Source of the DNA: an uncultured bacterium
GTDB taxonomy: Bacteria; Patescibacteriota; Minisyncoccia; UBA6257; 2-01-FULL-56-20
Length of the DNA stretch: 64,000 bases
NCBI GenBank assembly: GCA_963807165.1
Contig: CAWDZM010000001.1
Location: 119,963 to 183,962, forward strand
Reading direction: 5' to 3'
Shown here: one piece after another, positions 556 to 5,732 of the stretch
Numbering within the stretch: position 1 is the stretch's first letter
How the letters are laid out: each line of letters opens with the position of its first letter
Position numbers and translations under genes: made by a program
Notes under the pieces: generated by a model
The model's database searches: none
The model's input: only the letters and a program-made list of their open reading frames with translations
Told to the model about the DNA's origin: nothing

Positions 556-1191
556 GTGAGTGTGCTATCTATATTGGGTATGAATATTCTTAACGAGAAT
601 TTAATAGTAAGAATGTACGTGGAAGATAAACTTTCTGCTATGCAAATTAGCGAATTAACACACCTATCGATTTCAAAGATAGTGCGCATTTTAGAAATAC
701 ATCATATTCAAAAAAGAAGCATAAGCGAGGCCATCACGCAGCTTAATATAACAAAATTTCATAAGGCACCGTTTCAATTGAAGGCAAAACTTTCTTCGGT
801 TGAAAATGATTTGAAAATAACCGGGATAATGTTATATTGGGGCGAGGGAGCAAAGACAAGTGGTTCCGTAAAGCTTGCTAATAGCGATCCTGGAATGGTC
901 AAGGTTTTTCTTCTTTTCTTAAGAAATATTTGCGGAGCCGAAGAGAAAAGAATAAAAATGATCATCCATATGTACCCCGACCAAGATAGAATATTCCTGC
1001 AAAAATTTTGGTCATCGGTGACGGGTATCGGGCCGGAAAATTTTTATAAGCCGCAGATTCTCGCAGGCAAGAAGGGGACTTATAAAAAGAAATCTATTTA
1101 TGGCACCGCCACCATTTATTATGGCGATAAAAAATTACTGAAACAATTGCTAAAATGGATAGACGAATATAAAAATGGATTTTTAGCATAG
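556..1191 (+). CDS. hypothetical HTH-domain protein, member of a 2-copy tRNA-adjacent family (paralog of 57477..58190)
   Basis: 211-aa ORF; HTH-like segment LSAMQISELTHLSISKIV; shares motifs LYWGEGAK / NSDPGMVKVFLLFLR / IHMYPDQDR with the 57477..58190 protein; stop codon lies 2 nt before tRNA-Thr on the same strand. Confidence 0.5.
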   Translation: MSVLSILGMNILNENLIVRMYVEDKLSAMQISELTHLSISKIVRILEIHHIQKRSISEAITQLNITKFHKAPFQLKAKLSSVENDLKITGIMLYWGEGAKTSGSVKLANSDPGMVKVFLLFLRNICGAEEKRIKMIIHMYPDQDRIFLQKFWSSVTGIGPENFYKPQILAGKKGTYKKKSIYGTATIYYGDKKLLKQLLKWIDEYKNGFLA

Positions 1192-1192
1192 T

Positions 1193-1265
1193 GCCACCTT
1201 AGCTCAGCTGGCAGAGCGCTACTTTTGTAAAGTAGATGTCCCCGGTTCGATCCCGGGAGGTGGCT
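1193..1265 (+). tRNA. tRNA-Thr(TGT)
   Basis: Cloverleaf GCCACCT/AGGTGGC acceptor, D-arm AGCTCAGCTGGCAGAGC, anticodon loop TTTGTAA, T-arm CCCGGTTCGATCCCGGG. Confidence 0.85.
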
Positions 1266-1284
1266 CAACTGATATAATAAAACC

Positions 1285-1737: not shown

Positions 1738-2019
1738 GCCGTTGTAGCTCAGCTGGTAGAGCAACTCCATGGTGGACTCACAGAGTCATGCCCACGGAAG
1801 GGGAAACCCTTCTGCGAACCCCGAATTACGGTCAAAGGCCAGGAATGGCAGAGACCGTGGCGAAGATGCGAATAGCGCGTGATTCGCCCGAACGACTGAC
1901 AAGGGACGCTGCGCCGTACAAGCGGTATGCGTAAGATACAGTCTAATCCTCATATAAGCATCGCGAAGGTGAGGTATCAATGAAGGAGTAGGTCGCCGGT
2001 TCAATTCCGGCCAACGGCT
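1738..2019 (+). tRNA. tRNA-Thr(GGT) interrupted by a group I intron (exons 1738..1773 and 1983..2019)
   Basis: Acceptor GCCGTTG/CAACGGC, D-arm GCTCAGCTGGTAGAGC, anticodon stem ACTCC/GGAGT, T-arm GCCGGTTCAATTCCGGC; the anticodon loop ATGGT|AA is split after anticodon position 36 by a 209-nt insert. Confidence 0.6.
1774..1982 (+). ncRNA. group I self-splicing intron (small, ORF-less) in tRNA-Thr(GGT)
   Basis: 5' exon ends in U and the intron ends in G; the intron GUCAUG can pair with exon CAUGGU (P1 with a U-G wobble at the splice site); a GAAA-tetraloop hairpin (P2), an ACGGUC/GACCGU stem (P4), a P7-like GACUG/CAGUC pairing and the core-like string AAGAUACAGUCUAAUCC are all present; 209 nt is the size class of the Azoarcus tRNA-Ile intron. 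Confidence 0.55.
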
Positions 2020-2023
2020 CACT

Positions 2024-2110
2024 CGCAGACAGCAAAAATCCCTATCGCTATTTCGCTCCGACGTAAGCACGTCCACTCGCTCAATAGCAATAGGGATTTT
2101 TGCTGTCTGC
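2024..2110 (+). repeat. long hairpin (28-bp stem) carrying the conserved core TCGCTCCGACGTAAGCACGTCCACTCGCTCAA in its loop; copy 1 of a 4-copy family; terminator-like
   Basis: Inverted repeat cagacagcaaaaatccctatcgctatt / aatagcaatagggatttttgctgtctg; the core is shared with 44722..44800, 51181..51247 and 58842..58897. Confidence 0.7.
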
Positions 2111-3539: not shown

Positions 3540-3660
3540 TCCAAAGACCATAGGTTTGCCGCTAAAGGCATGTAATACCTATGAGAGGAGGTTTGGGCAA
3601 TAGCCCTCACATTCTTCGCGGCCTTGGAACGGCCGTTTTCTGTTTTTAAGGAATTATTAA
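3540..3660 (+). promoter_or_regulatory. candidate L10 (rplJ) leader / autoregulatory structure with a terminator-like hairpin
   Basis: ~130-nt 5' UTR before rplJ containing GCGGCCttggaacGGCCGtttt; L10 leaders are known autoregulatory elements. Confidence 0.3.
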
Positions 3661-5039: not shown

Positions 5040-5732
5040 CTATTCAAGTAAAAAAGATCGGATTTTTAAGGCCATGGCAACATGGTCTTCTAGTCGGAGT
5101 GCGGCGATATCGTTTCCGCGCCTTTCGGAAGGAATATATTCTATAAGATCAAAAAATCTAAAATTTGGACGATTTATTTTTTCTACCGCATCTTTAATTC
5201 TCTTGGCCTCGTCGAATTCTATATAAGGATTCATTGTTTCATACACCCAATGATGATGCTTTGCAAAATTTTTTAAATAATCCTCCCCGATAGCCGATTG
5301 AATTAAATCTTCCAATTCGGTATTCCATTCCGGAGGCTGAAACTCCATTTTTTTGGTGTATCCAACAAACGCAGCGCGAATGTTAAGATTTTGATTTTGC
5401 AGTTCTAGATTCCTAACGCCTGTTGGTGGAATGGCAATGCCTTCGATAAGCGCATCTTTTCCTTTACGGCTTAGAAGTTTTATTAATCCGATCGTGCCAA
5501 TCCACGCAGGAGTGTCCTCGCCGGTTCTGAGTTCTGGTATTTCCGGCATCTTTGCCTCGTGGGGATCTCCCTTGGTAATAGACCGATAAAGTTCACTCGT
5601 GCTTGCGCGAATAAAATCCGTCGAATTTTGATACATAGGTTTCTGCGAACAAATGCATGGACCTATGATCGTCGATTTTCGCATTCCAGGCACTCCACCA
5701 ATGAGATAGATCATAAGAAGATTGTAACTCAA
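5040..5732 (-). CDS. hypothetical protein with degenerate P-loop-like motif
   Basis: 230-aa ORF; LIGGVPGMRKST resembles a Walker A variant; no further family assignment possible by eye. Confidence 0.45.
   Translation of the reverse strand: MSYNLLMIYLIGGVPGMRKSTIIGPCICSQKPMYQNSTDFIRASTSELYRSITKGDPHEAKMPEIPELRTGEDTPAWIGTIGLIKLLSRKGKDALIEGIAIPPTGVRNLELQNQNLNIRAAFVGYTKKMEFQPPEWNTELEDLIQSAIGEDYLKNFAKHHHWVYETMNPYIEFDEAKRIKDAVEKINRPNFRFFDLIEYIPSERRGNDIAALRLEDHVAMALKIRSFLLE

Follow-up and report, generated by a model that had tools for sequence, protein, structure and literature searches.

A Patescibacteria tRNA-Thr(GGU) gene split after the anticodon by a divergent group I intron of a published class, and the LAGLIDADG-fold genes that adjoin its relatives

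Anticodon-loop introns of bacteria and the published tRNA-Thr(GGU) class

In the Azoarcus tRNA-Ile intron, the anticodon triplet itself provides the exon strand of P1, following the same logic as the tRNA-Thr intron described here, and in both the Azoarcus and the Agrobacterium introns the GAAA loop of L2 docks with an 11-nt receptor that lies in P8. These IC3 introns, hosted by tRNA-Ile(CAU) and tRNA-Arg(CCU), respectively, are inserted at the 36/37 site (types Ile2.5Ug and Arg.5Ug; Williams, 2020), as is the intron found in the window (the whole stretch of DNA analyzed here, 64,000 nucleotides in length), and like it they are small and have no endonuclease gene. By the published classification, they would differ from it in core sequence and subgroup.

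Other anticodon-loop introns have been described in Patescibacteria, the phylum of the window, in which no tRNA intron was assigned to IC (PMC13011429). Those of tRNA-Asn, tRNA-Asp and tRNA-Tyr (IA type) share with the window intron their location, a similar size and homologous core strings (GAUAACGGU / ACCGUGG, GACU and AAGAUA-AGUC), but they are inserted one position earlier, at 35/36, and P3 amounts to about 6-8 bp in the Tyr and Asp introns, as read from the sequence, versus 3 bp in the Thr class. The Asn, Asp and Tyr introns of Nakagawa et al. were found by the Rfam group I model RF00028, whereas the Tyr and Asp copies present in the loci studied here fall below its gathering score. Self-splicing in vitro was reported for tRNA-Asn and tRNA-Asp 35/36 introns (PMC13011429); these were the only assays found in the literature searched, and none concerned the Thr class.

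As for tRNA-Thr, a set of 15 introns termed "divergent group I" and confined to tRNA-Thr(GGT) goes back to Castelle et al. (2018, Nat Rev Microbiol), according to the summary given in the preprint of Nakagawa et al. (bioRxiv 10.1101/2025.07.03.662931). The class of Castelle et al. (2018) and Nakagawa et al. (2026) is characterized by splicing right after the anticodon, a terminal G, a size and structure like those of group I introns and the lack of an Rfam match. Nakagawa et al. (2026, mSystems) reported tRNA-Thr(GGU) introns at 36/37 in three complete Patescibacteria genomes (PMC13011429, Table 1), which corresponds to a frequency of about 3/95 among the complete genomes of this phylum. All three were missed by RF00028 and found by the tFind gpI_bact_tRNA model (Williams, 2020), two of the three host genes were called Arg(GCG) by ARAGORN, and in the published tree the Thr introns lie on long branches by or within the IA-type Patescibacteria tRNA introns (PMC13011429).

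The window intron has in common with this class the host tRNA, the anticodon, the 36/37 site, the terminal G and the phylum. Its family moreover shares with the published introns a length of about 180-230 nt, the lack of an RF00028 match and a tendency of ARAGORN to call many members Arg(GCG) or His(GUG), and no difference in kind is apparent. The initial annotation of the locus had proposed tRNA-Thr(GGU) as a new host. This novelty has to be given up, because the element fits the description of Castelle et al. (2018), as summarized in the preprint, in every point; the genomes of PMC13011429 and the more than 200 further copies reported below also stand against it. The window intron is a further copy of a class published since 2018, real but not new. 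As far as the literature searched is concerned, the covariation-based structure, the covariation between L2 and P8, the strict confinement to one site and the family size of more than 200 copies are first described here.

The split gene and the fold of its intron

Two tRNA halves separated by 209 nt can be read in the sequence at 1738-2019, on the plus strand. Run in intron mode, ARAGORN recognized in them a tRNA-Thr(ggt) interrupted at 36/37 by a 209-nt intron, and deleting 1774-1982 in silico left a perfect 74-nt cloverleaf. The 3' exon supplies A37 and A38, the 3' strand of the anticodon stem, the variable loop, the T arm, the 3' strand of the acceptor stem and a discriminator U; CCA is not encoded. 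Neither default ARAGORN nor the Rfam tRNA model called a gene at 1738-2019. A genome with such an intron would thus seem devoid of tRNA-Thr(GGU) in standard annotation, since these two tools and RF00028 all miss the gene. No second tRNA-Thr(GGU) lies elsewhere in the 64-kb window, and a scan for sigma-70 promoters and terminators around 1738-2019 gave nothing beyond shuffle expectation.

A natural empty site was provided by a metagenomic relative (L004), which was reached via the neighboring NUDIX gene, the products of the two NUDIX genes being 77% identical in amino-acid sequence. Gene order in L004 is the same as in the window, i.e., an HTH-LAGLIDADG gene, tRNA-Thr(UGU), NUDIX and, further on, tRNA-Trp. 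Its uninterrupted tRNA-Thr(GGU) (3584-3657) matches, at 73/73 positions, the exons of the window once 1773 and 1983 are joined, so that the intron boundaries 1773|1774 and 1982|1983 are set independently. The initial annotation of a tRNA-Thr(GGU) split by a 209-nt intron after position 36 was thus borne out by ARAGORN in intron mode, by the cloverleaf and by this empty site, and the second, uninterrupted tRNA-Thr(UGU) that it placed upstream was also recovered (Table 1).

Table 1. Coordinates of the split tRNA-Thr(GGU) gene, of the structural elements of its intron and of the upstream features in the window.
Feature	Position	Strand	Evidence or remark
HTH and single LAGLIDADG-fold protein gene, "W-type", not part of the intron	556..1191	+	Database protein starts at Met 580
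Uninterrupted tRNA-Thr(UGU), context	1193-1266	+	ARAGORN, Rfam; 472 nt upstream of the split gene
5' exon of tRNA-Thr(GGU), positions 1-36	1738..1773	+	ARAGORN intron mode; equals L004:3584-3657
Anticodon G34 G35 U36, end of 5' exon	1771-1773	+	
Group I intron, 209 nt	1774..1982	+	ARAGORN, covariation, RNAalifold, R1
P1 stem-loop	1771..1792	+	Covariation, RNAalifold; register in the window read from the sequence
P2 hairpin, 10 bp, one A.C mismatch, L2 GAAA tetraloop 1803-1806	1793..1816	+	10/10 pairs compensatory
P3 5' strand CCC, partner 1903-1905	1820..1822	+	99.3% paired; double changes at 3/3 pairs
P4 ACGGUC/GACCGU (1828-1833/1853-1858), encloses P5	1828..1858	+	P4 invariant save a U.G/C-G switch
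P5 (1838-1841/1846-1849), GGAA loop; J4/5 and J5/4 A-rich	within 1828..1858	+	4/4 pairs compensatory
P6/P6a hairpin	1859..1888	+	5/6 pairs compensatory; RNAalifold agrees
P7 5' strand: A1892, bulged C1893, GACUG 1894-1898	1892..1898	+	Invariant in 99 sequences apart from A1892-U1944
P3 3' strand GGG, makes the P3/P7 pseudoknot	1903..1905	+	Covariation
P8 hairpin, asymmetric internal loop C-UGC-G / U-AU-G	1906..1932	+	4/4 outer pairs covary
J8/7 AAGAUA	1933..1938	+	Nearly invariant in the family; aligns to RF00028 AAGAUA in L071
P7 3' strand CAGUC 1939-1943 and U1944	1939..1944	+	Alignment
P9 hairpin CCUCA/UGAGG (1948-1952/1970-1974); conserved UAUA and GAA internal-loop residues	1948..1974	+	5/5 pairs compensatory
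Terminal guanosine (omega G), 3' splice site	1982	+	All parsed 176-266 nt inserts end in G
3' exon, tRNA positions 37-73	1983..2019	+	ARAGORN; empty-site identity

Both the intron and the whole precursor are more stable than their dinucleotide shuffles (minimum free energy z = -4.1 for the intron and z = -5.05 for the precursor), and the minimum-energy fold of the intron already contains the hairpins listed in the initial annotation. The order of helices P1-P9, the P3/P7 pseudoknot, the U.G pair at the 5' splice site, the terminal G and AAGAUA-CAGUC make up the anatomy by which group I introns are defined. The group I type put forward initially, with U.G at the splice site, the terminal G1982 and helices P2-P9, was indeed upheld, and the motifs on which it relied (the GAAA-capped P2, P4, P7 as GACUG/CAGUC, AAGAUA-CAGUCUAAUCC starting at 1933, and P9) were all found in place.

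This covariation was evaluated by projecting the window helices on a MAFFT alignment of the 99 homologues, in which 53 pairs, i.e., 5167 cells, were counted. Standard pairs occupied 91.6% of these cells, versus 30-46% when the partners were slid by 1-3 columns. Changes on both sides were observed at 37 of the 53 pairs (930 cells), and none of 500 shuffles reached the observed values. Run with no structure supplied, RNAalifold returned the same P1, P2 and P4-P9. The alignment consists of invariant blocks (UGCCCA, AAUCCCGAAUAACGGUU, GACCGU, CGAACGACUGACAAGGG, AAGAUACAGUCUA and GAGGUGUAAGCG) with variable segments between them, and these segments form a hairpin in essentially every member, though their sequences almost all differ. 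Compensatory changes are abundant in P2, P5, P6, P8 and P9; because they are invariant, P4, P7 and, within P1, the GGU/GCC pairing contribute no evidence from covariation.

P1 comprises the pairs G1771-C1792 and G1772-C1791, the splice-site wobble U1773.G1790, G1774.U1789, a bulged A1788 and the helix 1775-1779/1783-1787, the internal guide sequence being GCC (1790-1792). All 99 homologues have the GGU/GCC pairing, including the U36.G wobble, and the intron-side extension of P1 covaries. An intron-side register forming a hairpin with a bulged U was also considered and was dropped, RNAalifold favoring a continuous helix; in the window, both registers converge on one helix with the bulged A1788. 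The P1 initially proposed, in which GUCAUG (1785-1790) of the intron faces CAUGGU of the exon, can be formed in the window but is not that of the family, where it is 61.7% paired and presents the splice-site U.G in 26/99 sequences. P3 is only 3 bp long and occurs in the variants CUC/GAG, CCU/AGG and UCC/GGA. The closing pair of P7, A1892-U1944, is replaced by G-C in one homologue (L035), and this swap supports a P7 with a bulged nucleotide beside a G-C pair, comparable to the P7 of Tetrahymena. In this helix, G1894-C1943 is the predicted guanosine-binding pair. No convincing pairing was found for P10.

From a tertiary point of view, L2 and P8 vary together. Of the 88 parsed sequences, 82 have either GAAA (37) or GYRA (45) as L2. 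A P8 internal loop resembling the 11-nt receptor of the GAAA tetraloop (GCUAA...UAUGC) accompanies GAAA in 30/37 cases, and all 45 sequences with GYRA have a plain helix in P8. The window and its closest relatives combine a GAAA L2 with C-UGC-G / U-AU-G, a variant of the receptor of the other members. Such concerted variation across aligned homologues is evidence for one tertiary contact between L2 and P8.

With respect to coding capacity, the plus strand of the 209-nt intron contains no ORF of at least 60 aa and the intron no endonuclease ORF of its own. The sole ORF listed over it is a mechanical one on the minus strand (1786-2076), which has no Pfam match.

Extent of the family and kinship with other introns

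Synteny via the adjacent NUDIX gene yielded three loci (L002, L003 and L004), and since the neighborhood of this gene is poorly conserved, the family was searched for by means of pattern scans instead. A scan based on the exons and run on a single genome per species looked for a tRNA D-arm, then U-GGU at the right distance and then a non-A base; it gave at least 120 matches, in which inserts were parsed by complementarity of the acceptor, anticodon stem and T stem. Among the matches listed, 99 distinct inserts of 176-266 nt were obtained, all of them located at 36/37 and all ending in G. The hosts amount to at least about 100 species-level genomes and are mostly labeled as Patescibacteria MAGs (Paceibacteria, Saccharibacteria, Kaiser-, Wolfe-, Moran-, Peregrini-, Uhr-, Doudna- and Jacksonbacteria, and others), while a few members bear other labels, including the isolate genome of Niastella populi (L051; strain CCTCC AB 208238). 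ARAGORN in intron mode often mislabels the members as tRNA-Arg(gcg) or tRNA-His(gtg), with an intron at 34/35.

Metagenome contigs were scanned with the invariant intron core alone (GAACGACUGACAAGGG ... AAGAUACAGUCUA), which gave at least 120 contigs. Among the matches listed, the intron directly follows U33-G34-G35-U36 of the tRNA in 113/113 assessable loci; 111 of these read UGGU, and the other two correspond to an ARAGORN position offset by two bases. Because a scan relying on the core only found every assessable locus after these four nucleotides, the ribozyme family appears, in these sequences, to be confined to the 36/37 site of tRNA-Thr(GGU). Taken together, the two scans found more than 200 further copies. 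In terms of RNA biology, a very small group I core, whose P3 and exon guide pairing are 3 bp each, is thereby available in more than 200 natural versions, and the family offers a clean switch between two tetraloop/receptor solutions.

A covariance model (R1) was built from the family, the window sequence being part of the training alignment. The window intron, as a member of this training set, scored 176.7 bits and is the single copy in the 64-kb window. A score of 172.9 bits was obtained for a Wolfebacteria genome (L048, CP011209.1), which is probably one of the three tabulated in PMC13011429.

Detection by Rfam was a different matter. A scan of the whole window at gathering thresholds gave no group I match, and neither RF00028 nor the other Rfam group I families matched at E <= 10 in a 501-nt search (1650-2150), the window intron thereby missing the RF00028 gathering threshold of 50 bits. 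The initial annotation had named the lack of an RF00028 match as one half of what would speak against it. This outcome, which is expected for the class, reflects a limit of the model and is no refutation, because the tRNA-Thr(GGU) class is known to escape RF00028. Among 13 homologous loci, only L071 matched it, over the full model, with 16.6 bits and E = 0.047 in a 301-nt search; P3 was aligned on CCC/GGG, P8 on P8 and AAGAUAUAGUCU on AAGAUACAGUCU (J8/7-P7).

In the fetched loci, R1 also cross-matched 35/36 introns of tRNA-Tyr(GUA) and tRNA-Asp(GUC), with 15-28 bits and E values of about 1e-7 to 1e-2. The regions aligned were P2, J3/4-P4, P7 and J8/7, and the host tRNAs were placed by ARAGORN. 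These weak matches were considered as RF00028-positive introns and rejected as such; they lie below the gathering score and are the tRNA-Tyr and tRNA-Asp 35/36 introns themselves. Since R1 cross-matches only IA-type Tyr and Asp introns and the Thr introns fall with the IA type in the published tree, kinship of the Thr intron with the Azoarcus and Agrobacterium IC3 introns appears limited to the shared 36/37 site and the general design. The comparison with Azoarcus and alpha-proteobacterial tRNA-Arg introns made in the initial annotation was thus right as to the insertion site (Williams, 2020), while the IC3 kinship that it implied found no support.

LAGLIDADG-fold genes, proposed splicing and possible mobility

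The window also contains, upstream, a gene (556-1191) that ends 2 nt before tRNA-Thr(UGU). Its product displays the alpha-beta-beta-alpha-beta-beta-alpha fold of LAGLIDADG proteins and a dimerization helix with an acidic end (G-D/E-G), and it is 32% identical (E = 3e-24) to the product of an ORF of L002 (3610-4200) that runs up to the tRNA-Thr(GGU) gene split by the intron. W-type genes such as the one at 556-1191 lie against an uninterrupted tRNA-Thr(UGU) not only in the window but also in L004, in L050 and in three further loci, the latter three found by protein homology alone and set in different gene neighborhoods. In 64 of 180 loci, the intron-bearing tRNA-Thr(GGU) is preceded by one of their "L-type" paralogues, whose end lies anywhere from about 50 nt ahead of the 5' end of the tRNA to 19 nt past it; these 180 are the family loci with enough upstream sequence among the matches listed. 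The L002 product and P0353 are proteins of the L-type. When three W-type genes are included, a LAGLIDADG-fold gene is adjacent in 67/180 loci. That a free-standing LAGLIDADG-fold gene immediately precedes the tRNA with the intron in about 37% of the members is one new result of this work. It should be noted that L255 and L256, two L-type loci chosen by protein homology alone, each lie directly 5' of an intron-bearing tRNA-Thr(GGU). Together with L002, reached via NUDIX, the L-type genes found independently of the intron thus adjoin it in 3/3 cases, a very small sample.

From a mechanistic point of view, the region 1738-2019 is very probably a Patescibacteria (Paceibacteria-like) tRNA-Thr(GGU) gene split between U36 and A37 by a 209-nt divergent group I intron that would follow the standard splicing pathway. 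The boundaries, the membership in a site-specific family, the conserved secondary structure and one tertiary contact are observed features; catalysis, and the need or not for a protein helper, we infer. In the proposed pathway, the anticodon G34-G35-U36 would pair with intron G1790-C1791-C1792, the U1773.G1790 wobble marking the 5' splice site. P3 (1820-1822/1903-1905) and P7 (1892-1898/1939-1944) would form the core pseudoknot around P4-P6 and P8, with the GAAA of L2 docking on the receptor-like internal loop of P8. A free guanosine held at the P7 pair G1894-C1943 would attack after U1773. G1982 would then take over the guanosine site, and the freed 3' OH of U36 would attack after G1982. Ligation of the exons would give the mature tRNA, with the anticodon loop A-U-G-G-U-A-A.

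This pathway has to be weighed against an intron which, while derived from group I, would be unable to splice alone and would need a protein partner; one candidate would be a maturase of the LAGLIDADG type, like the neighboring HTH-LAGLIDADG proteins. LAGLIDADG proteins can serve as group I maturases, and a reduced core, with its 3-bp P3 and its scores below Rfam detection, would be compatible with such a need, as would the LAGLIDADG-fold gene that ends a few tens of nt from the tRNA start in about 37% of the intron-bearing genes. However, 102/180 intron loci have no LAGLIDADG-fold gene within 1.6 kb upstream, the window itself has only a paralogue abutting the intron-less tRNA-Thr(UGU), and the conserved tetraloop-receptor contact speaks for a self-folding RNA, so that protein dependence seems unlikely to us.

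A dead intron remnant, which would make 1738-2019 a tRNA pseudogene, would be in line with the lack of an RF00028 match. This is very improbable, considering that the exons are intact and identical to the functional-looking uninterrupted allele of L004, that the core is invariant and compensatory changes preserve its helices in several Patescibacteria classes, and that the window offers no other tRNA-Thr(GGU) in its 64 kb. An element of another kind (group II intron, archaeal bulge-helix-bulge intron, transposon or MITE, or trans-joined split tRNA) would account for the interruption of the gene and for nothing beyond it. The P1-P9 order, the P3/P7 pseudoknot, the U.G pair and the terminal G specifically mark a group I intron, while group II and other Rfam matches and plus-strand ORFs of at least 60 aa are absent from the 209-nt insert and both tRNA halves are contiguous on one strand; such an element is hardly credible here. 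A divergent group I intron using the standard pathway is accordingly the reading that we retain.

What deserves to be pursued is the LAGLIDADG-fold gene family linked to the intron, which is itself of modest interest. Collaborative homing, for which the examples so far are a few from phages, involves a free-standing endonuclease gene beside an ORF-less intron (PMC3984707), and, as a hypothesis only, the association of an L-type or W-type gene with an ORF-less intron resembles this arrangement. No description of collaborative homing for tRNA-Thr(GGU) introns was found in the literature searched. Compared with F-CphI-type systems, the putative endonuclease is here of the HTH-LAGLIDADG type, and the window intron, in contrast to the homing arrangement, has no adjacent L-type gene. 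We tentatively suggest, as a possibility that we hold to be rather doubtful, that the intron and the free-standing HTH-LAGLIDADG gene may constitute a two-part mobile unit. The L-type protein would cut the uninterrupted tRNA-Thr(GGU) at or near 36/37, the intron would shield its carrier from cleavage, and both would be copied together into empty alleles, the two parts being separated only by the 36-nt 5' exon. If so, the window intron would have lost its partner, and the paralogue 556-1191 would have settled beside tRNA-Thr(UGU). Close relatives already display three of the states of such a unit: a W-type gene and the intron in the window, an L-type gene and the intron in L002, and a W-type gene with no intron in L004.

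Intron presence and the adjoining L-type gene

The presence of the tRNA-Thr(GGU) intron varies between near relatives, since the syntenic tRNA-Thr(GGU) of a close relative (locus L004) is uninterrupted and identical to the joined exons of the window gene. An L-type HTH-LAGLIDADG gene, a paralogue of the window ORF 556-1191, adjoins the intron-bearing tRNA-Thr(GGU) in 64 of the 180 family loci, its 3' end lying about 50 nt or less from the 5' end of the tRNA, or up to 19 nt inside it. Both L-type genes that were chosen solely by protein homology (L255 and L256) stand beside such a tRNA, and at least 714 L-type proteins are found in the database. This pairing of gene and intron may reflect collaborative homing or a maturase function.

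Coordinates of the features described, by locus (L) or window
Feature	Location	Strand	Remarks
L-type gene	L002:3610-4203
L-type gene	L255:2501-3106
L-type gene	L256:2501-3034
Uninterrupted tRNA-Thr(GGU)	L004:3584-3657		Syntenic position
Intron family member	L051, NZ_LWBP01000002.1, about 5197-5450	-	184.5 bits, Thr-family model
Inverted repeat	Window 2025-2110	+	28 nt, 96% complementary, spacer 30 nt
Mechanical ORF	Window 1786-2076	-	96 aa, antisense to intron and 3' exon
Further group I intron	L023:7668-7865	-
Further group I intron	L068:7202-7406	-
Further group I intron	L104:7037-7261	-
Further group I intron	L099:6414-6648	+
Further group I intron	L119:5591-5768	+
Further group I intron	L117:1738-1996	+
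Further group I intron	L119:1937-2207	-

Family diversity and neighbouring introns

One family member (L051) lies on a 300-kb contig of Niastella populi CCTCC AB 208238, a cultured Bacteroidota isolate, which offers a culturable system for assaying intron splicing. A tyrosine-recombinase gene begins just past the 3' end of this tRNA, with a conjugative coupling protein-like gene and a resolvase-like gene nearby, and an integrative element may use this tRNA as its attachment site.

In the P8 internal loop, the window (1906-1932), L002, L003, L036 and L050 carry UGC where the 11-nt-type receptor has UAA, giving C-UGC-G / U-AU-G, while the P2 loop of this sub-clade stays GAAA; the UGC-bearing loop is a natural variant of this receptor.

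Further group I introns occur near family loci, among them introns splitting tRNA-Tyr(GUA) and tRNA-Asp(GUC) at 35/36, which match the Thr-family covariance model weakly and score below the gathering score of RF00028, the Rfam group I model. Two others are RF00028-positive (50 and 57 bits).

Annotation of the locus and its flanks

In intron mode, ARAGORN labels many of the genes in family loci L010-L129 as tRNA-Arg(gcg), tRNA-His(gtg), tRNA-Pro(ggg) or tRNA-Leu(gag). The intron-terminal bases (..GCG, ..GUG) cause these errors by allowing the boundary to slide by 1-2 bases. The window intron ends in ..AUG, and its host gene is labelled correctly. Automatic annotation could also report, instead of the window tRNA, the antisense ORF, which is without a Pfam match and very unlikely to be a gene.

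The inverted repeat, whose first base lies 6 nt past the tRNA 3' end, is the sole copy within the 64-kb window and may serve as a terminator or as a hairpin for processing; its Rfam matches were weak and judged spurious.
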